Assembly (NCBI RefSeq): GCF_054482525.1
Contig: NZ_CM137006.1
Length of the DNA: 64,000 nucleotides
Direction: 5' to 3' (one strand)
Shown: positions 21,201 through 33,048 of the stretch, one piece after another
How the letters are laid out: the number at the start of each line of letters is the position of its first letter
Position numbering within the stretch: the first letter of the stretch is position 1
Notes under the pieces: generated by a model
What the model saw: only the letters and a program-made list of their open reading frames with translations
Database searches by the model: none
What the model was told of the DNA's origin: nothing
Program-made: the position numbers and the translations under genes

Positions 21201-21337
21201 CGTGTAATGGCTGCATGAAATAAACAATAAAATATAAATAACATTATCAGCCTGCCGACGGCTTGAAGAGAGTCACAGTATCTTGTGCAACATTATTGGA
21301 AAGCGTGAGGGGCGAGGTAGCGAAGCGGAAAAATGTT

Positions 21338-21407
21338 AAAAAAAAGCCCATCGTGGGAGATGGGCAAAGACTACACACAGCAATTCGTTGTTTCACTCAG
21401 GGGATTT
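21338..21407. repeat. Left attachment-site direct repeat (duplicate of the rprA 3' end and terminator, 70 bp)
   Basis: Identical to 32979-33048: aaaaaaaagcccatcgtgggagatgggcaaagactacacacagcaattcgttgtttcactcaggggattt. Confidence 0.9.
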
Positions 21408-21424
21408 AAGTCATTGATTGATTT

Positions 21425-22054
21425 ATGGGTATGCGGTTTTTCGGCATAAACCAAATTAAGCAAGGCTTGAAAATGGACACACAAATTGCACACATATCGC
21501 ACACAAATAAAAAGGGGTATGTATGGCGCAAGCGTTATGAAAAACGCACGATTGAAATCATCCTACGCACCCGTGATAAATCAATTGCCATAAAAAGAGC
21601 GGCATCAATAACAATTCGCTATATGGAATTAAAATCACTTGACGTTCCATTTAAAGCAATGCTGGAAATGTTAAAAAAGTTTCGTGATGGTCTGATTACG
21701 TCACATGACATTGAGCGCTTAAGGTCGATTGCGATAGCTTCACAGGAAGCTCCACACGCCGCTGTAACCGCTTCGCCTATACAAAGTGTTGGCTATGATG
21801 TCAAAACCGCTCAGAAAGCCGCACAGGGGCATTCCCTTGGCGATGCTCAAAAAGTGTACTTTGGCGCCAACACCGAATGGAAAGAAAAAACCATCAAGGC
21901 TTATTCTGGTTGTATCGACCGCTTTATTTTATGGTGCGCTAATAAAAATATTCATACCGTGGAAGAAATAACGAAAGAGCATGTGATTTCATTTAAATCC
22001 AGCATGGATGAAGAAAAATTAGCCTCCATGACTAAATTTCGCATAATAATATGA
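21425..22054 (+). pseudogene. Tyrosine-integrase-like N-terminal fragment (core-binding/SAM-like region only, catalytic domain missing)
   Basis: 209-aa ORF; the segment KTIKAYSGCIDRFILWCANKNIHTVEEITKEHVISF resembles an integrase core-binding domain; no R..HxxR..Y catalytic region follows; sits next to the att repeat. Confidence 0.4.
21477..21509. repeat. Three tandem ~11-bp repeats (acacacaaatt / gcacacatatc / gcacacaaata), candidate integrase arm-type sites, left end
   Basis: Direct tandem repeats ~70 bp inside the left att repeat; a matching triplet lies ~70 bp inside the right repeat. Confidence 0.5.
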
Positions 22055-22362
22055 TTCGGGTTAGCATAACCAATACTTTTATTAAAGCCTATGTATGCAC
22101 CAATTTCTTTATACTTTAACTTAGTGAAATCTGAAATAATACTCAGTGGCTGCAATACGTTATGTCCATTGTGCGCCCCTTCATTAGCGCAAAATCCTGT
22201 ATTTGCAAACTGACCTTTATCACGCCAGATGAATCTATCAACGCCGCCACATACAGGACATGGTGTATGTTCATTTGGTTTAATATCAATTCCAAAATCA
22301 TTCATATGCACCAATGGATTCTTTTTAATATAATTATTCAAATCAGTAAAGAAATTAGCCAT
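21952..22362 (-). pseudogene. DNA primase zinc-ribbon domain fragment (Toprim and downstream domains absent)
   Basis: Motif HTPCPVCGGVDRFIWRD typical of primase Zn-ribbons; ORF stops soon after; its 3' end overlaps the convergent integrase fragment. Confidence 0.45.
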
Positions 22363-22681
22363 TATATTTGCTCCCGTATCGCCTTGCTGGATGCTTTGCA
22401 AAGAAATCAACGATATCTTGTTTGCGATACCAGATATAACCGTCTAATTCATGATGAATTTCTTGCGGAAATTCTTTAGGGTTAAAGCGTTTGGCGGCAT
22501 AAAACATTGGTTTAGTAACACCAGATAAAGCAATTGCATCATTGCCACACACAAGCCCTGTAAGTTGCACTTTCTGCGATTGTTCTTTTATCTGTGCCGC
22601 GATTAGCCTTTTATTCTCATTAACGTATTTTTCAATCTGTAGCTTACGCATTTTTTCGCGCATGTAATTTATATCGGTCAT
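22355..22681 (-). CDS. AlpA/Xis-like small DNA-binding protein, 108 aa
   Basis: C-terminal region FYAAKRFNPKEFPQE...YIWYRKQDIVDFF resembles the AlpA-family FPK...W..R..DI..W pattern. Confidence 0.45.
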   Translation of the reverse strand: MTDINYMREKMRKLQIEKYVNENKRLIAAQIKEQSQKVQLTGLVCGNDAIALSGVTKPMFYAAKRFNPKEFPQEIHHELDGYIWYRKQDIVDFFAKHPARRYGSKYNG

Positions 22682-22697
22682 TTTAGTATCCTATATA

Positions 22698-24200
22698 TTA
22701 AGTCATTATCTGTGCTGGTGGGGTAATGATATGAATTATCCCTCGATTATTCATAATGAATCTACATCGTTCAAGCCCTGTAATTGCTCGCTTTATATTA
22801 TTTGGCTGCATTTTATACTCAGTTTTTAATGCCTTCGTTAAATCGGATTCATGTACACAGCCATCAGCACTAAATTCCATTAACTGTATTATCATTTCTA
22901 AAACTCGTTCTTGTGCTGGTGCATTTTTCTTTTTTAACTCGCTCATATATGAGTCGTAAGCGAGAGTATTATTACGCGCAGCATTTTGAGTAAAATTAAC
23001 TCCTGCTTCATATGATTCTGCATTTACAGCGTTTTGCATTAATTGCTTATTTTGCTGTTGCGTTGTTAGTGGTTGCCGCTGTTGCGTGTGCATTTGCGCA
23101 TAATCATTTATCGGTGATTGCTGCATGATAAATGGTTCATCATTAGCTTGTTTGCGTTCTATTTTTCCTGCTGCAATTACTGGAGTTGGCCTATCAATAA
23201 ATACCAACGTCTTAGTATTGGCGTTTACCTGATAACCTTTTGCATTTTCTTCGGGATAATCGCATAATTCATTATTAATATCATGTAATTCACAGACGGT
23301 AATTCCGTTATCCGCTGTGCATAAATCAAATTGCATCACTGGTAATTTTGCAGCGCTACGGTTTTTTTCGATAGTGAGTGATACGGATAACCCAAAATCA
23401 TTACCCTGCATTTGCTCTAGTTTAATGACTGTATCAGAGTCATTTTTAAGGGTAATGGCTCCTTTCATACCTTTAGCCGCATCTTTGCCGCCGTGGTGAA
23501 CCATCAAGACAAAAGAATTTGTTTCTACTGCAATTCTTTTCAAAATCGAAATCAGCTTACGCATTGCAATAGCATCATTTTCATCAGGATTTTCCATATC
23601 CAAAATGGTTTTTCCATCAATGCTTTTTTTTGTGTAGTATGCCAAAAATGAAGAAAGCGTATCAAAACAAATGATGCCGCCTTTGTTATTGGTGATTTTA
23701 TTTACATCATTTATTATTCGATTCTGTATTTCTTTATCAAATAAGTTTATTTGTGGTGACAAGATGTGCATTCTGTCATTTTTAACGCCACTATTAAACT
23801 TATTAGACCACGCTGTATTTCGATCTTTGATTTCAACGCCTGTTTCACCATCAAAATAAAAAGCATGGCATTCTTTAGCAACTCGCAAACCAGCCCACGG
23901 TTTACCCTGTGCAACTCTGTTTAAAAGAGATAATGCCGCAAATGATTTGCCTGTGTTGGATTCACCATAAAGGAAGCCGACCTGTTTTCGGTTAAATAGA
24001 TTTTCAATTACAGGGCGTAACCGCTTTTCTGATTGCAATTGAATTTCAGCTAATTCAATTGCACACAATTCATCATTTATACCATCATATTCAGACCACT
24101 CACCGTAGTTGGCGGGTGCGTAATAATCAATCGCGAGAGTGTAATAATAATCAGGAATAGCAGACCAATCAATAAACATTCCTGTGCACATATCATTCAC
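22698..24200 (-). CDS. RecA-like (RepA/AAA_25-type) replication ATPase, 500 aa
   Basis: Walker A GESNTGKS near residue 80; hydrophobic strand plus HHGGKD Walker-B-like region; Q/N-rich linker and C-terminal domain; flanked by AlpA-like genes and iterons. Confidence 0.55.
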   Translation of the reverse strand: MNDMCTGMFIDWSAIPDYYYTLAIDYYAPANYGEWSEYDGINDELCAIELAEIQLQSEKRLRPVIENLFNRKQVGFLYGESNTGKSFAALSLLNRVAQGKPWAGLRVAKECHAFYFDGETGVEIKDRNTAWSNKFNSGVKNDRMHILSPQINLFDKEIQNRIINDVNKITNNKGGIICFDTLSSFLAYYTKKSIDGKTILDMENPDENDAIAMRKLISILKRIAVETNSFVLMVHHGGKDAAKGMKGAITLKNDSDTVIKLEQMQGNDFGLSVSLTIEKNRSAAKLPVMQFDLCTADNGITVCELHDINNELCDYPEENAKGYQVNANTKTLVFIDRPTPVIAAGKIERKQANDEPFIMQQSPINDYAQMHTQQRQPLTTQQQNKQLMQNAVNAESYEAGVNFTQNAARNNTLAYDSYMSELKKKNAPAQERVLEMIIQLMEFSADGCVHESDLTKALKTEYKMQPNNIKRAITGLERCRFIMNNRGIIHIITPPAQIMT

Positions 24201-24247
24201 CGTAATTTGGGTATTTAATTAAGAAAAATTCAATTACTTCTTCTTTT

Positions 24248-24400
24248 TTATATAGATGCTTTGTTTTTTTTGTTTTTATCGCAAGTAACTAAATGCTCTT
24301 TTGGAAATTCTTTAGGGTTAAAACGTTTAGCCATATAAAAAGCGGTTGAGCCAATTTTAGCCAAAAGTTGTGCTTCACGAGGTGTAATTAAGTCGCTCAT
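24248..24400 (-). pseudogene. Second AlpA-like fragment (50 codons), partial duplicate of the 22355-22681 gene
   Basis: Translation MSDLITPREAQLLAKIGSTAFYMAKRFNPKEFPKEH... shares the FY-AKRFNPKEFP motif with the downstream AlpA-like gene; weak RBS; not in the ORF track (<60 aa). Confidence 0.3.
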
Positions 24401-24750
24401 GTAGGGTATCTCTTAGATGTATTCTGAGTGCGGTCATGGTAGGCGAGGGGAGGAATAGCGGCAAGCATTACCGGATATAGTAAGCACTACCAGCTAAAGT
24501 CTAACTAACTGTCAACAGATTGAGGCTAAAACCACTGTATGTAAATTCAATTTTAAAAATTAAAAATCATTCTGGCTTAACTAATTATGCTCAATTTAAA
24601 TTGAATCTGATAATAAAAAGAATCAATAAAATGGATTTAGTGATTTTTAGTTGGACGAAATCGTTCATTTTATGTGCATTGCTCGCTGGTGATAATTCAA
24701 CCAATCCATTCAACCTATTCGAATGGGTGGTGAATTTTTGACCGAATTAA

Positions 24751-24920
24751 ATTCACCTGAATATTCACCGAATGATTCACCTGAATCATTCAGCCCTTCA
24801 TTCACCACGAAACCCAGGCGCGGCGGGGCTTACAGGCCGATTCATTCACCTGAATATTCACCTGAATATTCACCTGAATTATTCAACCAAAAATTCACCT
24901 TCATATTCACTCATTCACCT
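24751..24920. repeat. Iteron array: two clusters of three 12-bp tandem repeats (ATTCACCTGAAT) plus degenerate copies
   Basis: Units at 24751, 24763, 24775 and at 24844, 24856, 24868 with further TTCACC copies; lies upstream of the Rep ATPase operon. Confidence 0.6.
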
Positions 24921-24957
24921 CTCTATAAATAAGCATTGGAATGCTTTTTATAGAGGT
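24921..24957. other. Long near-perfect inverted repeat (ctctataaataagcatt gg aatgctttttatagag), hairpin or operator
   Basis: About 16-bp arms with a 2-nt loop, T-run on one side; lies between the iterons and the ner-like gene. Confidence 0.4.
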
Positions 24958-25236
24958 TGATGAATGAAGGTCGTTCAAGTGAATGAACTGTGAGTTGGGT
25001 AAACCCCTAGGGGTTGGGGGTGTTGTCGATTTGTGGTAAATTCCTTCTGCCAGCGTGAAAAAGGCGCTGGTGGGGATTTGCAGCCCCAAACAAACAAAAC
25101 CATTGGCAAGGAATTGCCGATGCGCGTGCGCACGTCAGTTATGGCGGTCACGGCGAGGGAGTCGAAAGGCTCGCCAGTTTTGTTTGTTTGCTGGTACTGC
25201 AAACCTCGTCGTGATCGTCACCACGGGGATGCATGT

Positions 25237-25488
25237 ATGCAGGAAACAGACTGGCACAAAGCGGATATTCTTGCCTCTTTAAAGAAAAAGAAAATCAGCA
25301 TGGCGGGATTATCCCGTGAACATGGTTTATCAAGTAGCACGTTGCTAAATGCACTTAGTAGAGAATGGCCTAGAGGCGAATTAATTATTGCTAATGCAAT
25401 TGGTGTGTCACCTCAAGAAATATGGCCTTCTAGGTATTTTGAAAAAGATGGCTCTCCAAAAAATCGTGTGATTCGTAAACCTGTTTAA
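25237..25488 (+). CDS. Ner/Nlp (SfsB)-family HTH DNA-binding regulator, ~83 aa
   Basis: MQETDWHKADILASLKKKKISMAGLSREHGLSSSTLLNALSREWPRGELIIANAIGVSPQEIWPSRY closely resembles Ner/Nlp; I prefer the internal ATG at 25237 over the 151-aa ORF start. Confidence 0.6.
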   Translation: MQETDWHKADILASLKKKKISMAGLSREHGLSSSTLLNALSREWPRGELIIANAIGVSPQEIWPSRYFEKDGSPKNRVIRKPV

Positions 25489-25705
25489 ATAAGTCAATGC
25501 GTCTCTGATTAAAAGGGGCGCATTTTTGTTTTTACTGACTTGTTGCAATGTGGGATATGTTGCGCACGTGTGTGCGATAGTTGTTAATTGTTTTTTGTAC
25601 TAGTTAACAAATACGAATTTTCTGAGGGTGCTATTTTGGGTTTTAGCTGCGGCTTCGCCTTGCTGCCCTTCGGGCTGGTGGTGCAAGAAGAATGTTTGAA
25701 AACTT

Positions 25706-25751
25706 CCTTTTCTTTGCTTCACCAGCCCCGTAGGGGCGTGAGCGTAGCGAA
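25706..25751. repeat. 46-bp direct repeat, copy 1 (ccttttctttgcttcaccagccccgtaggggcgtgagcgtagcgaa)
   Basis: Identical to 29912-29957; contains a gcccc-gta-ggggc hairpin; ~100 bp upstream of the 383-aa gene. Confidence 0.85.
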
Positions 25752-25849
25752 CCTAATCACTTTGATTTTGACACATATCGGTTCTATCATTTTCAGGAAA
25801 ATCATCATAGAATTATATAAAACATACGATTTTTAAGGTGAATTTTTAA

Positions 25850-27001
25850 ATGCACGAGAAAGCGCAAACAAAAATAAAAGATACTATTAGAGAAATACTA
25901 ATCACTCCAGCAATCGCTTTTACTGGTCGTGCAGGTCATTTTGATTTTTCATTATATGAAGTTTTAGCAAATGAGCTTAACAAAAGAAAGATAAAGTTTA
26001 AAATTGATAAATTATCATGTTGGATTATTTTTGATGGCGCAAAAAAACATTACTTTCAAGATAAATCAATTACTGACGCACAAGCGATAAATGATTTTGT
26101 GGATACGTTATGTAGTATTTACTGTGAAACACCTATGGATTACTCCATCGATTTTCACTTTAGAAATTTAAAAATCGATATCAACCCGATTGATTATGAG
26201 TTTGTTTCAATTAGAGCGGGTGAGGATATTGGTATTGGTTTGTTCGCTGAAAAAGAAAAGTATGCGATTGCGAGCATTAAAAAGAATGGCTATCTTTCAG
26301 GTGGTTATCCTAGCTCATTTATAAAATCGATTTTGCAAGATTTGAAAATCTTCATTTTTTTGATTAAAAGCATTAATTTGATTAAGACAGGAAAAACCAA
26401 TTTAGCATCCACGTTATTTCAATCGATGTCCGGTCATGCTGACACAATTAAGATTGATTGCGTTAATGTTAAATATCCTTGGATGAATAGCAGTGTCCAT
26501 ATTTCAGAGTCGGTAGGGAAATTTTTACACAACTTTATCTTCAATTATGAATTTGAAGAAGGCTACATTATAGAAAAAATAGATCATTCGCTTCAGCTAA
26601 TGAATGCAATAGTAAAAGATGAGTCAAAAGAAGCCTTGCGTATCAAGGCTGCAATTGATTGGTTGGTGCAATCTGAAATCACTGATGATGAAACCATGTC
26701 TTTTATTCAAATTTGCATGGGGCTTGAATCAATTTTTGGTGATGATGATTATGAGGGTGGCCTAACAAACATACTATCTGATAGATGCGCCTACTTAATA
26801 GGGAATAAAATTAAAGAGAGGAGATTTATAAAGGACACATTTAAAAAAATATATCAAGTTAGGTCAAAGATAGTGCATGGCGTAAGAAATCATTTATCAG
26901 ATGATGAATTATATTTTAGGCATTTAGCATATTCATATTTAGAGCGTTCTATTCTAAAAGAAATTCAAAATTTAGACCTGCAATCCCATCAGGCGACGTG
27001 A
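25850..27001 (+). CDS. Hypothetical protein with C-terminal HEPN-like R-x4-H-G motif, 383 aa
   Basis: AGGTGA RBS 8 nt upstream; C-terminal ...KKIYQVRSKIVHGVRNH matches the R-x4-6-H signature of HEPN RNases; strongly AT-rich. Confidence 0.4.
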   Translation: MHEKAQTKIKDTIREILITPAIAFTGRAGHFDFSLYEVLANELNKRKIKFKIDKLSCWIIFDGAKKHYFQDKSITDAQAINDFVDTLCSIYCETPMDYSIDFHFRNLKIDINPIDYEFVSIRAGEDIGIGLFAEKEKYAIASIKKNGYLSGGYPSSFIKSILQDLKIFIFLIKSINLIKTGKTNLASTLFQSMSGHADTIKIDCVNVKYPWMNSSVHISESVGKFLHNFIFNYEFEEGYIIEKIDHSLQLMNAIVKDESKEALRIKAAIDWLVQSEITDDETMSFIQICMGLESIFGDDDYEGGLTNILSDRCAYLIGNKIKERRFIKDTFKKIYQVRSKIVHGVRNHLSDDELYFRHLAYSYLERSILKEIQNLDLQSHQAT

Positions 27002-27236
27002 AGCTTGTGCGCTTCATTATGGGGCTAGCCGCCATCAGGCAAGGCGATTGCATGTCTTTGCGCTTCGTCGCCTCCTGATGCGTTCTGTGAAGATGTCGAT
27101 CATTTAGTGAGCGCGGCGGATGTTGCTGATGGATAGTGTGGATGCAACTGAACCATACCGCGAAAAGTGGCAGGATTGCGCCGGAATCGTACCGCTAGCA
27201 GGTGTTGAGTGTAAGAAGTAGTGATTGGGTGAAATG

Positions 27237-27275
27237 AAGATAGAAGGCCGCATAGAGGCATACAACTAGCCTTAT
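27237..27275 (-). terminator. Hairpin downstream of the lipoprotein gene (candidate terminator)
   Basis: ccgcata...tatgcgg stem followed, on the minus strand, by a T-rich tract. Confidence 0.35.
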
Positions 27276-27288
27276 GCGGTTGGCTGGT

Positions 27289-27732
27289 TCAGCACTGGTA
27301 AAAGTTGGCGAGGTGTGGAATATGGCTGGTGGTGGTTTCGAAAGCCTTGAGGCGTCCATTTTTATCTTTTTTCAAGTAGAGCATTTTTAGTGCTGGTGGA
27401 AATACTGAATCCATAATTCCATAAACTCCCACATTTTCGTTTTCTTCTTTAAGCATTCCCCAATATTGATAACCATTTAATGCGCTATCATCAATGCCCG
27501 TTCCAACGCGCTTAATGTGGGCAAGATATCGGCCTTTTATCGTAAAGCTAAATGATTCATCACGTTCATTTGTGCAAGTGTAAAATCCATCATCGCTTTC
27601 ATTTATAACTTCAGATGCTTCACGATTTAATGAGTACTTGTCTAAGTTGTTTATGATGTCACTTCGCTGTGCGCATCCAGTCAAATTTAGAATGGTAAAA
27701 ATTAGTACAGAAGATGCAAGATATTTGTTCAT
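27289..27732 (-). CDS. Predicted lipoprotein, ~147 aa
   Basis: N-terminus MNKYLASSVLIFTILNLTGC carries a signal peptide with lipobox LTGC; internal ATG at 27732 preferred. Confidence 0.55.
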   Translation of the reverse strand: MNKYLASSVLIFTILNLTGCAQRSDIINNLDKYSLNREASEVINESDDGFYTCTNERDESFSFTIKGRYLAHIKRVGTGIDDSALNGYQYWGMLKEENENVGVYGIMDSVFPPALKMLYLKKDKNGRLKAFETTTSHIPHLANFYQC

Positions 27733-27818
27733 TTTGATTATCCATATGAAAAGCAAGGTACTTAGATTAAATTACCCTGCTTAAGCAGTAATTAGCGGTT
27801 CCGTTAATAGAGGGTAGA

Positions 27819-28178
27819 TTATTTGTTAATTTGTTTTTTAGTGTGTGAGATAAAATTTCTAAGTAAATCTTTTTCAATTACAATTTCACATTTTAGGTTT
27901 TGGCTATCGACCGCATCAATTCTATCAAACCAAAACATTAATTCCTGGCTTGCATCGCATTTACGTTTGAATTTAATTGCCCTGCCGAATTTTTCACTTA
28001 AAGAATCATCATCACATAAAAAATAAATTTTATTATTAATGGTGATTTGAATTAAATATGTCTTCCTCGTTAGGTAATCTAACCTTTCGTTAGCTTTCAG
28101 TAAGTTAGCTTCAGCTTGTTTGATGCGTATAAGAGCATCCTCTTTGCTTAAAGGGGATGTATTGACAGACTTGATCAT
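27819..28178 (-). CDS. Hypothetical protein, 119 aa, upstream partner of the lipoprotein
   Basis: AAGGA RBS 8 nt upstream of the ATG; co-oriented with the lipoprotein gene, 86-bp gap. Confidence 0.5.
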   Translation of the reverse strand: MIKSVNTSPLSKEDALIRIKQAEANLLKANERLDYLTRKTYLIQITINNKIYFLCDDDSLSEKFGRAIKFKRKCDASQELMFWFDRIDAVDSQNLKCEIVIEKDLLRNFISHTKKQINK

Positions 28179-28287
28179 AATTTAATCCTTTGGTTAAGAT
28201 TCATCAAAAATATGCCATAAATAGCCTTGAAGGTTGTGTGGAATACATATTATGATAGCTTCATCTAATCAGCAAGGGGAATAATAG

Positions 28288-28443
28288 ATGCCTTCTAAAC
28301 GTGTTATATGCTCACTTGATGAGCAAGAGTTAGATATTCTCGAAAAATATAAATTACATTATAAAAATATGCATGGCGTAAAATTAAACAGAACGGCAAT
28401 TATCAAAATGTTGATTAGTCGTCTATCAAAAGAAATTCAATAA
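28288..28443 (+). CDS. Ribbon-helix-helix (Arc/CopG-like) small DNA-binding protein, 51 aa
   Basis: MPSKRVICSLDEQELDILEKYKLHYKNMHGVKLNRTAIIKMLISRLSKEIQ shows a beta-strand/helix/helix pattern; GGGGA RBS; divergent from the 27819-28178 operon; below ORF-track length cutoff. Confidence 0.45.
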   Translation: MPSKRVICSLDEQELDILEKYKLHYKNMHGVKLNRTAIIKMLISRLSKEIQ

Positions 28444-28495
28444 TAATTCTAATTACCAATTAATTTAAACTTCACATAATTAAAGAGGCAACTCT

Positions 28496-28810
28496 ATGCA
28501 CACTCTTTTTTCTAAATTTAAAAACAGGAAAATTAAAATGTATCAACCACGTTATAAAAGCAGAATGATTGACGATAATGAATATAATCAGGTGCTTCAA
28601 TCGAGAATGCAAAATCTTTTAAATCAATATAATAATGAGGTTTCAAACTTAACCCGCATTGGTGTTACAAATTTGGGTTTCGGCCGATGGGATAATGGAG
28701 AGAGCAAAATCAATAACCACGTTAATAAAGTAAGTGAGACTTTGGAAAAGATGCAATCTACGCAAGCCTTGATTGATGCTCTTGCAAATGAAATTACACA
28801 AACTAATTAA
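28496..28810 (+). CDS. Hypothetical protein, 104 aa
   Basis: AAGAGG RBS 8 nt upstream; no recognisable motif. Confidence 0.45.
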   Translation: MHTLFSKFKNRKIKMYQPRYKSRMIDDNEYNQVLQSRMQNLLNQYNNEVSNLTRIGVTNLGFGRWDNGESKINNHVNKVSETLEKMQSTQALIDALANEITQTN

Positions 28811-28894
28811 TCGAATGGGGGATGCTTTAAATGGTAATCGCAATCATGGTTGTAATGTTTTGGGCTTTCCTGATTCTTAAAGAGGAAATGAAAT

Positions 28895-29179
28895 ATGGTT
28901 AAATTTGGAGTGTTTTACCATCATGCATGGGGTGATGGTAAAAAGGAAATCCCGCCACCTGATTTAAATTACATCCGAACCGATCCACATAAAAATAATG
29001 AAATTGCTTTAGATGTTTTTGATTCAAGAATGGACGCACAAAAACGCGCTGATTTACTAAATTCACGCATGGCAAAAAATCAAACTGGTCAGCATTATGT
29101 TGCGCCAACAACGCAAGAAACCAAAACGGCTCAAAAGCGCTTTAAGTTTCCTTGTACTAGCATTTATGGGTGGAAATGA
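28895..29179 (+). CDS. Hypothetical protein, 94 aa (paralog family A)
   Basis: AGAGGA RBS; N-terminus MVKFGVFYHHAWGDG is similar to the next gene's N-terminus. Confidence 0.45.
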   Translation: MVKFGVFYHHAWGDGKKEIPPPDLNYIRTDPHKNNEIALDVFDSRMDAQKRADLLNSRMAKNQTGQHYVAPTTQETKTAQKRFKFPCTSIYGWK

Positions 29180-29181
29180 AA

Positions 29182-29556
29182 ATGAGTAAACAATTCGGTG
29201 TTTTCTTTTGGCGAAAAGGTGACGCTATTACCGATATCCCGTCAGATAAAAATGTTGCAAATCGCGGAGTAAAGCCTAAGCGCATTTTTTCAGATTATAT
29301 TGATGGAATGCGATATAAAGATAAAATGAATGCAACAATTCCAGCGGCGCAAAAAGGTAAATATGAATATGTATTAGCGGAAATTGTTGAACCAGACCCG
29401 AACAATACAAAGGTGTTGTTTAAATCTGGAAATTTAACAGAAGCATTAAGGGCGAAGCGACAAACAACCGAACAAATCAACCGAAATAAAATTGATGCAA
29501 TGATTAAAGAAGCCGCACACGATTACCTTTACACTATTACAGGAATGGAAAAATGA
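29182..29556 (+). CDS. Hypothetical protein, ~124 aa (paralog family A)
   Basis: N-terminus MSKQFGVFFWRKGDA parallels the upstream gene; GGTGGA RBS; start at 29182 preferred over 29170. Confidence 0.45.
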   Translation: MSKQFGVFFWRKGDAITDIPSDKNVANRGVKPKRIFSDYIDGMRYKDKMNATIPAAQKGKYEYVLAEIVEPDPNNTKVLFKSGNLTEALRAKRQTTEQINRNKIDAMIKEAAHDYLYTITGMEK

Positions 29557-29852
29557 TTATTGACGAGCGATTTATTAAATGGTCAATGGTGCTGGTGGAG
29601 GCCGGAAAGCCATCACCCAGCCTCGCGGGGCTTTATAAAGGAAACACTAAAGGATTAATCTTTTATAAAACACGTGAATTGGCATCAAATGCAGCCACTA
29701 AACGGAATGAGCAATTAGCAGGAACTAAATCAACCAGCCGATTTAAAATCATTAAATTGCATGACGCAGAAGCACAACAGAAACATGATTTTCAGTTAAA
29801 ACAGGAACGCCAGCGCCGCGATGCACGCCATATGCGCCGATTTGGTTTCTAA
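29553..29852 (+). CDS. Hypothetical basic protein, 99 aa
   Basis: 4-bp ATGA overlap with the upstream gene suggests translational coupling; Lys/Arg-rich C-terminus. Confidence 0.4.
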   Translation: MIIDERFIKWSMVLVEAGKPSPSLAGLYKGNTKGLIFYKTRELASNAATKRNEQLAGTKSTSRFKIIKLHDAEAQQKHDFQLKQERQRRDARHMRRFGF

Positions 29853-29911
29853 ATATAACTCAATAACTCAACCAATGGTGATGTTAAAGAATAAGGTGGC
29901 CTTAAATTTCA

Positions 29912-29957
29912 CCTTTTCTTTGCTTCACCAGCCCCGTAGGGGCGTGAGCGTAGCGAA
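29912..29957. repeat. 46-bp direct repeat, copy 2
   Basis: Identical to 25706-25751; 37 bp upstream of the tape-measure-like gene. Confidence 0.85.
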
Positions 29958-29993
29958 ATAAGTAACATTAATATCAAATCAGAGGTAAATAAA

Positions 29994-31982
29994 ATGGCAG
30001 GTGAAAATGCTCAATTGGGCTTTTCCGTCGATACATCGGAAGTGGAAACAGCATCAAAAAGGCTTAATGAATTAGCTAAATCAGCGCAAGGGGCGGCTGA
30101 TTCGGCTGGCAAATTATCAGATTCATTTGAGGAAAGTATGAAGGGTGTTAATTCATCAATTACTTCCAATCATCAGGCTATGCGCGAATTAACGGTAATG
30201 ATGCACGAAGCAATGTCTGGTAATTGGTCGCGCTTGCGTGGTTCTGCAATGATTATGGGCGGCGCATTGGGATTTGGTGGATTAACTAGCGGTGCGGTAG
30301 TTGGTGGAATTACGCTTGTTTCGGAAGGCATTGAATCGCTAATTGAAGGAATGCGAGAAGCTCAAAAAGCAGAAACTGAATTAAATAATTCTGCTGTAAT
30401 TACAGCAGATGTAAGCCTTTTAAATAGTGATTATGTTGATTCACTTACTATTGGTTATGAGAAATTAGGCTATTCAGCAACACAAGCAAAAGGCATGATT
30501 GCAGCGTTAAGTAATGCGGGTATGTTTGGTGATGAATTTAGTGTTGCAGGTAAACAAATTGCCGCACTATCTAAAGCGTTAGGCGGTAATTCAGACGAAC
30601 AAAAAAAATTAGCTGGTCAATTTGGTGGCTTGTATTCTGACCCGCTAGGACACGTTAACGAATTTTTCCAAGTAACAAACGGATGGATTACCAAAACCGA
30701 ACAAAACCGAATTAATGCGGCTGAACAATCGCATAATTCAGCACAAGCTGAAATGGCTATGCAAGAAGCGCTATTAGATGTTTATAAGCGTCAAACCGAT
30801 ATGCTACAGCTTAAAGCCTATTTGGAAACTAACGCCGCTACATATTCAGCCTTTCAGACGCGCGAACAATTCGGCAGCGCATGGGGTAAGGGCGAAAAAG
30901 AAAAGGCAGACGCATTTATCAAGCAATATGACGAGCGCCAGCAATCATTTAATCAGGGCGTTGAAAAGCTAAAAGGAAGCATTCACGAAACAGGACGCCA
31001 GATAAGGGAAAATGTAGAAGAATTTAATAAAGGAATGCATCCCCATAAAGTGCATACACACCACGGATTAACAGCAATTGAGAAAGCAGCTAAACAATTG
31101 GTGACCTACCAAACCCAAATTAAACAGGCTGGTTTGCAATTTGACCAGCAAATTAATTCAATTGGTGATTCAGTAAATAATGCGTGGAGTAATAAATTAT
31201 ACTCTTATTCAATGTCTTCTGACCAGAATGATTTTGCAAACCGAATTGAACAAATCAATGAACAATTCGACCGTATGCGCGAAAATGTAGACCGTTTGGC
31301 GCTGCAACATCATAAATCAATTGGTTCAAAAGAATATGTTGAAATGTTCCAAAAAATCGAATTAGGGCGCAAAAACGTATTGGCTGAAAACGTTGCTGGA
31401 TTTAATGAAATGGAGTCATTGCAGCATTCAGCGCTGGCGGGAATGGATGAGGGATGGATTAAATACCAGAAGCAGGTTAATGATGTTGCAAGCCAATCAG
31501 AGAAAGTTTTTGATACGGCTGTTGAGGGAATGACAAATTCATTAACTGATTTCTTTACAACTGGTGAGGCTGGTTGGACTAATTTTGTAAAATCAATCGC
31601 AACAATCACTGAAAAATACATGGTTCAAGATTGGATTGTTGAGCCGCTAGCAGGATTAGTAAAAGGGGGGATTAGCTCGCTATTTTCATCAAATCCATTG
31701 AGTTCAACGGCTAACACTTTTGCCGTTCCCGATATTCCAAAATTGGGCGCAACTCATTTAGGAGGCGGTCTAGGTTCGACCGCACCAGTTATCAATATCA
31801 CCATTAATGACAATGGCAACAAAGGCGGCGTTGATAGCAATGTTAGCGGCACAACAGGGCAAGTACAAAAAATGGGGGCGGCGCTAGATAAATTCCTGCA
31901 AAACTATATCAAAGAGCAAAACGTAAAATCCAACCGTCAGGGCGGGTTAAACAAAACAATGGGGAACTGGTCGACAAGATAA
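29994..31982 (+). CDS. Phage tail tape-measure protein homolog (lambda gpH-like), 662 aa, orphan
   Basis: Glycine-rich hydrophobic segment MIMGGALGFGGLTSGAVVGGITLV near the N-terminus, long helical middle, C-terminal FDTAVEGMTNSLTDFFTTGEAGWTNFVKSI and ...VINITINDNG matching, from memory, the lambda H C-terminal region; AGAGGT RBS. Confidence 0.6.
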   Translation: MAGENAQLGFSVDTSEVETASKRLNELAKSAQGAADSAGKLSDSFEESMKGVNSSITSNHQAMRELTVMMHEAMSGNWSRLRGSAMIMGGALGFGGLTSGAVVGGITLVSEGIESLIEGMREAQKAETELNNSAVITADVSLLNSDYVDSLTIGYEKLGYSATQAKGMIAALSNAGMFGDEFSVAGKQIAALSKALGGNSDEQKKLAGQFGGLYSDPLGHVNEFFQVTNGWITKTEQNRINAAEQSHNSAQAEMAMQEALLDVYKRQTDMLQLKAYLETNAATYSAFQTREQFGSAWGKGEKEKADAFIKQYDERQQSFNQGVEKLKGSIHETGRQIRENVEEFNKGMHPHKVHTHHGLTAIEKAAKQLVTYQTQIKQAGLQFDQQINSIGDSVNNAWSNKLYSYSMSSDQNDFANRIEQINEQFDRMRENVDRLALQHHKSIGSKEYVEMFQKIELGRKNVLAENVAGFNEMESLQHSALAGMDEGWIKYQKQVNDVASQSEKVFDTAVEGMTNSLTDFFTTGEAGWTNFVKSIATITEKYMVQDWIVEPLAGLVKGGISSLFSSNPLSSTANTFAVPDIPKLGATHLGGGLGSTAPVINITINDNGNKGGVDSNVSGTTGQVQKMGAALDKFLQNYIKEQNVKSNRQGGLNKTMGNWSTR

Positions 31983-32043
31983 TATTATGTTGCTTAGTAA
32001 GTCTAAACTTTACGCCCTAATTAGGGCGTTTTATTTAAAAAAG

Positions 32044-32661
32044 TTAATTTGCTGTATTTTCTCTCATCTTTCTAAGTTCTGGCAATACTTTCTTATAGAA
32101 TTTCGTAGTGGAATCAGCGCAGTAGTTTTGCAGATACTTATAGTTTTCTTCAAATTTAGGGAGATCTTTAGCTACCGTCAATTGCTTTGGTAAAGTTCCG
32201 GTAGCATCATCGGTTATATCAAATGTTATTGAATTATGTTTTCGATCTTCATTAACTTTTTTTAAAGTGGCAACAATAGGGCTTTTATCCATAGAACCAT
32301 CTATTAGTTGGCGAACTTGAAACTTCCTTGGGATTATAAAATTAATTACTGACGGAGGTTCACTATTTAATGTTATATTCCAAGTTATTGGCATAGCATC
32401 ACATAAACCTTCAGATATTATTTCACCATCAATTGAACCATCAGAATTGGCGATAAATTGTATTATAACAAGTGGTTGATCTTTATTTAAGCCAAGATCT
32501 CCACTATTTATTATATATTCAGCGTCTGTCGACCATTTGCCTGTTAGAAATTCTTTTTGATAAAGTGCTTCATTTATTTCACCTCTATATGGTAAATATA
32601 GACCTATAGCACCAATTGCAACACCTAATACAGTGCATATTGTTGTTATTCGTCCACTCAT
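32044..32661 (-). CDS. Membrane-anchored hypothetical protein, 205 aa
   Basis: N-terminal hydrophobic helix ITTICTVLGVAIGAIGLYLPY; AT-rich; at the island edge. Confidence 0.45.
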   Translation of the reverse strand: MSGRITTICTVLGVAIGAIGLYLPYRGEINEALYQKEFLTGKWSTDAEYIINSGDLGLNKDQPLVIIQFIANSDGSIDGEIISEGLCDAMPITWNITLNSEPPSVINFIIPRKFQVRQLIDGSMDKSPIVATLKKVNEDRKHNSITFDITDDATGTLPKQLTVAKDLPKFEENYKYLQNYCADSTTKFYKKVLPELRKMRENTAN

Positions 32662-32875
32662 ATCACACTCGTTATCTTATCCTTGTTGTAGTTAAGCATT
32701 TTATTTTATTTTTTTATTGTGAAAATGGCTAGTTTTAGTTGGGTCTTGCGCTGAATCTAACGAGTGCTTACCCCGTGAAGTGATTTATGATTAAAGTTCG
32801 TTTTGTTTTTGGTTAAAAAATGAACATGTGAGTGCTTTGGAAAATTTCTGTAACACTCACCTGATTTACGCTGGT

Positions 32876-32909
32876 AGCACACAAATGGTACACAAACGGC
32901 ACACAGGTA
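32876..32909. repeat. Three tandem ~11-bp repeats (agcacacaaatgg / tacacaaacgg / cacacaggtaa), candidate integrase arm-type sites, right end
   Basis: Mirrors the left-end triplet; same orientation; ~70 bp inside the right att repeat. Confidence 0.5.
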
Positions 32910-32978
32910 ATCGCATACCTTTAATGACCTAATTTCTTCAAGCCCCTGCATTGCTGCGTTTGTCGTGATTTTCGGCAT

Positions 32979-33048
32979 AAAAAAAAGCCCATCGTGGGAG
33001 ATGGGCAAAGACTACACACAGCAATTCGTTGTTTCACTCAGGGGATTT
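32979..33048. repeat. Right attachment-site direct repeat (3' 70 nt of intact rprA)
   Basis: Identical to 21338-21407. Confidence 0.9.

Follow-up and report, generated by a model that had tools for sequence, protein, structure and literature searches.

What do the small genes upstream of a tape-measure-like gene do on a mobile island? The question is raised by positions 28,496-29,852 of a 64,000-nucleotide stretch of DNA (the window; NCBI RefSeq assembly GCF_054482525.1, contig NZ_CM137006.1), where four short open reading frames (ORF1-ORF4) precede a gene whose product resembles phage tape measure proteins (TMPs). The answer that we favor, and to which we give a probability of only about 0.35, is that the products of ORF3 and ORF4 act as partners, specific to the island, of the TMP-like protein, and that ORF1 and ORF2 are optional additions. 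The five genes are:

28496-28810, plus strand: ORF1, 104 aa, mildly acidic, occupying an optional slot.
28895-29179, plus strand: ORF2, 94 aa, basic (pI 9.5), an optional paralogue of ORF3 and ORF4.
29182-29556, plus strand: ORF3, 124 aa, basic (pI 9.5), a core gene.
29553-29852, plus strand: ORF4, 99 aa, very basic (pI 10.5), a core gene with an arginine-rich C-terminal helix.
29994-31982, plus strand: TMP-like protein gene, 662 aa, acidic (pI 5.5), ending the operon.

The initial annotation of the window had described four co-oriented ORFs with good ribosome-binding sites, the last two overlapping by ATGA. All four are present at these positions, each with an AGGA/GAGG-type Shine-Dalgarno (SD) site 7-9 nt 5′ of it, and the overlap was borne out; from this arrangement, ORF4 appears to be translationally coupled to ORF3. 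Together they form the promoter-proximal part of a conserved rightward operon on the island, and in the Prokaryotic Genome Annotation Pipeline (PGAP) annotation of identical Escherichia coli genomes they are hypothetical proteins. RefSeq places the start of ORF1 at 28538, which yields a 90-aa product; both ATGs and both SD-like sites are kept in seven islands. Alternative starts for ORF3 lie at 29176 and 29170, and the ORF4 protein ends ..QERQRRDARHMRRFGF.

We compared the window island with related islands, labeled L002-L013 (L012 is the island of E. coli FREC5), and counted gene presence across ten of them. The reading frames are kept by orthologues in up to ten islands, and the ratio of nonsynonymous to synonymous substitution rates (dN/dS) among close islands was 0.07-0.21 for ORF1, 0.09-0.18 for ORF3, and 0.05-0.09 for ORF4; for ORF2 it was ~0.4, at saturated dS. 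Because dN/dS is low and the frames are kept, we regard ORF1-ORF4 as selected protein genes and not chance ORFs, so that the genes postulated in the initial annotation are evidently real.

Are all four equally part of the system? ORF3 was found in all ten islands, including a distant 110-aa form in L013, and ORF4 in nine, plus one copy with a nonsense codon (L008). The TMP-like gene is present in nine of the ten, being gone from a decayed Citrobacter island (L003), and the gene order is always the same. ORF1 occurs in seven islands, with unrelated small ORFs filling its slot in L004, L006, and L013, and ORF2 only in the window/FREC5 island, L006, and L010. By this distribution, we class ORF3 and ORF4 as core genes and ORF1 and ORF2 as optional. 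Two islands show how the cluster decays: in Phytobacter massiliensis (L008, 10001-10300), ORF4 has a stop at codon 26 and the TMP-like gene is intact, and in Citrobacter freundii (L003, 9350-10750), the integrase, replication genes, and TMP gene have been lost and ORF1, ORF3, and ORF4 are intact.

ORF1 homologues fell into 36 clusters, all from Enterobacterales genera or unnamed assemblies and none with a name; ORF3 had 30 homologue clusters, and ORF2 a single other 90%-identity cluster among 5.8 billion. Among 1.84 billion representatives, an exhaustive HMMER search with an ORF4 profile recovered four clusters (50% identity) that are genuine; a fifth match, the 580-aa P0035, is a repetitive eukaryote-like protein that we judged spurious. 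ORF3 and ORF4 had no tblastn match in 50,697 phage genomes, and a literature search found these protein accessions mentioned in no paper. The ORF1-ORF4 families thus appear confined to these islands in Enterobacterales genera.

The profile searches and structure prediction proposed in the initial annotation assigned ORF1-ORF4 to no known family and predicted a shared α/β topology for ORF3 and ORF4. Scans against Pfam, PHROGs, NCBIfam, and PADLOC gave only sub-threshold matches, which we took as chance. The predicted fold matched no known structure or chaperone in the PDB and BFVD, and a PDB profile search with ORF4 returned nothing. For ORF3, the same kind of search matched designer pentatricopeptide repeat proteins (E 3e-11); we rejected this as a repeat or composition artefact, because it consisted of four ~11-bit stretches on idealised repeats and the helical fold conflicts with the strands in the AlphaFold2 (AF2) model.

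The initial annotation had also noticed a shared N-terminal motif in the 94- and 124-aa proteins and proposed that they are a duplicated family. Their similarity is beyond chance but pairwise modest: BLASTP aligned ORF2 with ORF3 at E = 0.01, a score reached by 25 of 5000 shuffles, and with more diverse orthologues, hhalign matched ORF2 to the ORF3 family at E = 1.6e-4 over 69 columns. The L006 ORF2 alone gave no significance against ORF3 sequences in the shuffle test. The family turned out to be wider than claimed, as the 99-aa ORF4 protein joins it: hhalign matched ORF4 to ORF3 (E 8.8e-4) and to ORF2 (E 5.6e-4) with the same elements in register, and the AF2 models of ORF4 (predicted local distance difference test score, pLDDT, 80) and ORF3 (pLDDT 66 overall, 77-89 in the core, residues 31-70) have an identical topology of strand, loop, short strand, helix, strand, and long C-terminal helix (β1-β2-α-β3 plus helix). 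ORF2, ORF3, and ORF4 are each predicted to be a small basic domain of a three-stranded sheet and a helix followed by a long C-terminal helix. At the two corresponding positions, the distant island L013 encodes a 110-aa protein starting RYGVFV and an ORF4-like protein of 93 aa. We conclude, on support that is moderate and not overwhelming, that the cluster holds three ancient paralogues of one island-specific family, not two.

The protein encoded downstream matches Pfam Tape_meas_lam_C (E 8e-15) and PHROG tape-measure families (down to 3.5e-21) and is ~25% identical to the TMPs of phi80 and mEp043 over 230 aa. With the 1.6 Å per residue quoted in PMC11838301, its 662 aa would correspond to a tail of ~106 nm and the 1045 aa of the phi80 TMP to one of ~167 nm. 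The cluster had been placed immediately upstream of this gene; the upstream position holds, but the genes do not abut, as a spacer of 141 nt (29853-29993) separates them. In all nine islands that have a TMP-like gene, ORF3 and ORF4 precede it, with a spacer of ~120-145 nt. The island TMP-like proteins are 660-715 aa long, with ~130 N-terminal and ~80 C-terminal residues conserved between islands and a middle region that drops to 12-24% identity. We count it in favor of a partnership that these conserved ends would match the very conserved ORF4, which is 88-97% identical in most islands. Divergence of the TMP-like middle next to such an ORF4 suggests module replacement or diversifying pressure. 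The window/FREC5 version (661-662 aa) is 35-40% identical to the ~705-aa versions in L002, L004, L006, and L008-L011.

Could the small proteins and the TMP-like protein bind each other? The island TMP-like protein is acidic in five lineages (pI 5.2-5.5, net charge -14 to -18), whereas the pI of every ORF2, ORF3, and ORF4 member is 9.0-10.5. The TMP of phi80 is basic (pI 9.5, +22), and the phi80 G and T proteins are strongly acidic (pI 4.3 and 4.1; sequences from the record). The charge polarity between TMP and small proteins is thus reversed relative to phi80, in every lineage examined. This reversal fits binding of the small proteins to the TMP-like protein, and it fits nucleic-acid binding equally well. 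It also suggests that the acidic chaperones of a helper phage would not serve the acidic island TMP.

We propose, at the probability given above, a model in which ORF3 and ORF4 would bind and solubilise the TMP-like protein, doing the job of tail assembly chaperones. By way of its conserved N- and C-terminal regions, the TMP-like protein would then join the tail-initiation complex of a lambdoid helper, and the result would be chimeric tails like those of the Vibrio PLE satellites. In place of the G/GT pair that is otherwise made by frameshifting, there would be two paralogues that share a core and differ in their C-terminal helices, and ORF1 and ORF2, being optional, would supply additional factors for interference or specificity. 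What speaks for this model is the selection acting on the genes, the co-occurrence of ORF3, ORF4, and the TMP-like gene in fixed order, the restriction of the families to the islands, the paralogy, the charge complementarity, and the PLE precedent.

That precedent is the closest working analogue. The PLEs (elements that resemble phage-inducible chromosomal islands) of Vibrio cholerae encode their own versions of the TMP, the tail assembly chaperone, and the baseplate hub and assemble chimeric tails, and in PLE11 the helper TMP is blocked by a further protein, the 80-aa Rta (PMC11838301). Like a PLE, the island is an integrative satellite-type element with its own diverged TMP gene and small genes beside it, and in the PLE a small element-encoded protein, Rta, targets helper tail assembly. 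Unlike the PLE, whose helper is the myovirus ICP1, the island would have a lambdoid siphovirus as its helper; it has no baseplate hub gene, its small proteins are basic with no detectable chaperone similarity, and it is described here from its sequence.

The comparison with the lambda-type G/GT proteins (gp13/gp14 in phi80) cuts both ways. Both sets of genes lie directly upstream of a lambda-family TMP gene, and both specify two proteins with a common N-terminal core, different C-termini, and a net charge opposite to that of the TMP. The island genes differ in having no programmed -1 frameshift, no sequence similarity, and the inverted polarity, and the predicted α/β fold of their products matches no known chaperone. 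The initial annotation had seen no frameshift-type overlap, and we agree: ORF4 always starts at an ATG of its own, the islands share no conserved slippery heptamer, and the frame of ORF4 relative to ORF3 is -1 in six islands (ATGA) and +1 in three (TGAnATG). A candidate G/GT-like frameshift at GAAAAATGA was rejected, as the junction and frame differ between islands. Nor was there a Pfam, PHROG, or NCBIfam chaperone match at E<=1, and hhalign found no similarity to phi80 G (E 0.71) or T (E 0.64). Because there is neither a conserved frameshift nor sequence similarity, ORF2-ORF4 are not lambda-type G/GT chaperones in the family sense.

Several observations weigh against the partner model, the missing conserved frameshift at ORF3/ORF4 being the first. 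A terminator-like hairpin, followed by a 45-nt element, lies between ORF4 and the TMP-like gene. Co-evolution of the ORF3 C-terminal helix with TMP type was looked for and not seen: the helix type does not co-vary with the TMP, and the L002 and L009 TMPs are 95% identical with ORF3 C-termini that are 49% identical. The Citrobacter island keeps ORF1, ORF3, and ORF4 intact without a TMP gene, and the basic charge would suit a nucleic-acid ligand just as well. Without a recognisable capsid, terminase, or cos, the status of the island as a satellite is itself something that we infer, and the window copy is without the integrase catalytic domain and the primase Toprim domain. A more far-reaching version of the model would be an undescribed enterobacterial family of P4-sized satellites that rebuild the tails of lambdoid helpers with their own acidic TMP, serviced by a charge-inverted, frameshift-free chaperone set that arose from a duplicated small basic protein (ORF2/ORF3/ORF4) instead of by G/GT recoding; we consider this version unlikely as it stands.

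The spacer itself bears on a different function. The features concerned are:

29893-29925, plus strand: terminator-like hairpin with a U-rich run, directly 3′ of ORF4 (RNA fold z = -3.0).
29912-29957, plus strand: conserved GC-rich 45-nt element, copy 2 (..ACCAGCCCCGnAGGGGCGTGAGCGwAGCGAA).
25706-25751: 45-nt element, copy 1, upstream of the HEPN gene.
28288-28443, plus strand: 51-aa first gene of the operon, present in ten of ten islands, dN/dS 0.1-0.35, with a promoter-like site at 28227-28256.
32012-32029, plus strand: intrinsic-terminator-like hairpin closing the operon.

The hairpin after ORF4 has a stronger equivalent in L004 (GGGCGGG..CCCGCC plus TTTTCTTTT). The 45-nt element occurs twice in the window, where no copies are expected, and one to three times in every related island (L002, L003, L004, L006, and L008-L013), with an invariant core and diverged flanks. 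It contains a hairpin, GCCCC-NNN-GGGGC, with an invariant core and a variable loop, and a terminator-like hairpin always precedes it. The element marks the starts of variable modules, namely the cargo after the HTH_35 gene and the TMP-like gene, and an inverted copy lies beside the integrase in three islands. It was found in only five E. coli genomes, the island-bearing ones, and phage records contained no copy. It may serve as a regulatory site, or it may delimit modules that are exchanged by recombination.

If it is a regulatory site, ORF2, ORF3, and ORF4 might be small nucleic-acid-binding regulators, a reading that is somewhat doubtful and that we rank close behind the partner model. The arginine-rich C-terminal helix of ORF4 might then be used like that of lambda N, giving read-through or activation at the 45-nt element before the TMP-like gene and the cargo module; with similarly guarded odds, the proteins might instead target the late genes of the helper in the manner of P4 Delta. 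Every member of the family is basic, ORF4 having a pI of ~10.5 and the C-terminus given above, and the first gene of the operon also encodes a small basic protein, which looks ribbon-helix-helix-like by eye and is confirmed by no profile. An island-specific hairpin element follows the terminator-like hairpin between ORF4 and the TMP-like gene and recurs before the cargo in every island, and ORF3 and ORF4 persist in the island that lost its TMP gene. However, scans of Pfam, PHROG, and NCBIfam gave no helix-turn-helix, ribbon-helix-helix, or other nucleic-acid-binding family. The hairpin loop varies (GTA, GCA, ATA, GAA), unlike boxB, and the terminator-like hairpin is followed, not preceded, by the element. 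L013 has the element nearly unchanged together with an ORF4 homologue of only 23% identity, and the inverted copy beside the integrase in three islands suits a module boundary better than an operator.

What kind of element carries these genes? Two further features delimit it:

21337-33048, no strand assigned: integrative island, 11.6 kb, low GC, with 71-nt direct repeats of the rprA 3′ part at 21337-21407 and 32978-33048.
27819-28178, minus strand: 119-aa core gene, divergent from the small-gene operon, 75-87% identical in all related islands, dN/dS ~0.1.

The direct repeats are 11,641 nt apart, and the GC content between them is 0.32-0.42 as against ~0.50 in the flanks. RprA matches were obtained at both ends (81 bits for the left copy, 119 bits for the right), and RefSeq annotates two rprA features. 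Because 71-nt direct repeats of the rprA 3′ part occur at both ends, the low-GC segment is, to all appearances, an integrative island in the small RNA gene rprA, between ydiL and ydiK. Other family members integrate elsewhere, next to an NAD-dependent epimerase gene. The window is chromosomal DNA of E. coli, and the searched stretch (28200-32000) is 100% identical in E. coli SCU-102 and 19KM1776 and 99.9% identical in a third strain. Of 5426 complete E. coli genomes, 5 have the island, and it turns up sporadically in other Enterobacteriaceae; one species-representative genome (P. massiliensis) and one IMG/VR contig also carry relatives.

Complete islands were found in E. coli S10 and FREC5 (the intact copy), Salmonella, Enterobacter, and a metagenome bin, and integrase, primase, and helicase are complete in L002, L004, L006, and L009-L012. 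Their order begins with a tyrosine integrase, an optional GIY-YIG nuclease, a Zn-ribbon/Toprim primase, a 108-aa protein, a DUF3987 or AAA_25 helicase, and a small protein. On the other strand follow a C4-type antisense RNA and an HTH_35 repressor-type gene, and then come variable cargo (HEPN and others), two leftward genes including the 119-aa gene, and the rightward small-gene operon. The 119-aa protein had no family match in Pfam, PHROGs, or NCBIfam; we infer only that it is a candidate regulator.

The TMP-like gene is the sole recognised structural gene of the island. No capsid, terminase, or other packaging function is recognisable on it, and the lambda and P2 cos patterns that were searched for were not found. 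With an integrase, a replication module, a regulatory switch, and no full virion set, the island has the gene content of a phage satellite, and in its architecture and size, too, it resembles one. Because the setting is satellite-like, a helper-directed role of the small genes is plausible. Overall, what the initial annotation saw in the sequence holds and has been widened, and its interpretation finds partial support.

Such a role need not involve the tail. The small proteins might be interference or hijacking factors for capsid-size redirection, terminase redirection, or DNA packaging, comparable to Sid and Psu of P4 or to Ppi, Rpp, and CpmAB of phage-inducible chromosomal islands (PICIs). 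The island is P4-sized and has an integrase, a primase-helicase, a C4/CI-type immunity RNA, and iteron-like repeats, and packaging or capsid genes are not recognisable on it; some of its unassigned genes would therefore have to supply these functions if it is a satellite. Small, fast-evolving, family-specific proteins are typical of helper-redirecting factors. We nevertheless hold this improbable, as the small proteins have no similarity to known redirecting proteins or small terminase and no link to capsids, and their tight, invariant linkage with the TMP-like gene points to the tail.

The likeness to P4-like satellites extends to a size of ~11.6 kb, a tyrosine integrase, a Zn-ribbon/Toprim primase with helicase, and a small C4/CI-type antisense immunity RNA; the island differs in that its late-type operon carries the small paralogues and the TMP-like gene instead. 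P4-type late proteins were not named in the Pfam, PHROG, and NCBIfam scans, which included no search by name for sid, delta, psu, or alpha.

The immunity RNA of the window island (Rfam RF01695; 65.8 bits, gathering score 45) lies at 25137-25225 on the plus strand, directly 5′ of the repressor-type HTH_35 gene (25237-25488). The loop of the RNA has a perfect 14-nt complement 50 nt upstream, at 25087-25100, a layout like that of P1/P7 c4 and P4 CI immunity. Pairing of the loop with the small-gene operon was considered and discarded, as this site beside the C4 RNA itself is the only perfect target. An array of direct and inverted ATTCACCTGAAT(A) repeats at 24751-24911, between the leftward replication genes and the C4 RNA, is probably the island origin made of iterons. 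A 44-nt direct repeat (84% identical; 22461-22504 and 24297-24340) links the 108-aa and 50-aa genes of the leftward operon, and a tblastn search matched the 50-aa protein to part of the L013 108-aa protein; this likeness points to a partial internal duplication. At 21425-22410, a deletion in the window fuses the N-terminal SAM-like domain of the integrase (209 aa, without the catalytic domain) to a Zn-ribbon fragment of the primase without Toprim, and the window copy is probably immobile and unable to replicate on its own.

The cargo (25850-27001 and 32044-32661 in the window) differs between islands and includes a 383-aa HEPN-annotated protein, a 205-aa protein of no assigned function, a PIN-domain protein in S10, and others. 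No PADLOC model matched the cargo proteins, which could be uncharacterised defence cargo. The small genes might themselves be accessory anti-defence or defence cargo, such as anti-CRISPR-like inhibitors, small toxins, or abortive-infection factors. ORF1 and ORF2 do behave as swappable accessory genes on an island with variable cargo such as the HEPN and PIN proteins. ORF3 and ORF4, however, are invariant core genes and not cargo, and PADLOC gave nothing credible for ORF1-ORF4 (a single weak match, of Cas7g to ORF1, at E 0.0023). DNA-mimicking inhibitors are acidic as a rule, and the small proteins here are basic. Of the readings considered, this one seems to us the least probable.

Other mobile elements offer partial parallels to the partnership that we favor. 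The EPIP satellites of Mycolicibacterium are ~11 kb long and encode a TMP, and their authors propose altered hijacked tails (bioRxiv 10.64898/2025.12.02.691453). The island shares the ~11-kb size and the TMP; EPIPs differ in also having small terminase, head-tail connector, scaffold, and capsid genes and a serine integrase, and in a host phylum that is unrelated. Tab and Tai are small proteins on mobile elements that act on the tail assembly or TMP of invading phages, paired with self-protection (PMC10884400, PMC11364771). They show that small mobile-element proteins commonly target tail assembly. Compared by description and not by homology, the island resembles them in encoding small proteins on a mobile element; the Tab and Tai systems have no element-encoded TMP.

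To our knowledge, the first reports of satellite-encoded TMPs date from 2025 and concern Vibrio PLEs and mycobacterial EPIPs, and no such TMP has been described for E. coli, Salmonella, or lambdoid helpers. If the small proteins are partners of the TMP-like protein, the island would represent a second, independent way for a phage parasite to take over tail assembly. It would also provide an alternative to the near-universal G/GT frameshift, achieved by duplicating a gene and inverting the electrostatics. The system is small and resides in genetically tractable hosts, with an intact copy in E. coli FREC5. Should the small proteins instead be regulators, the control circuit of a new island family would be defined by them together with the 45-nt element.

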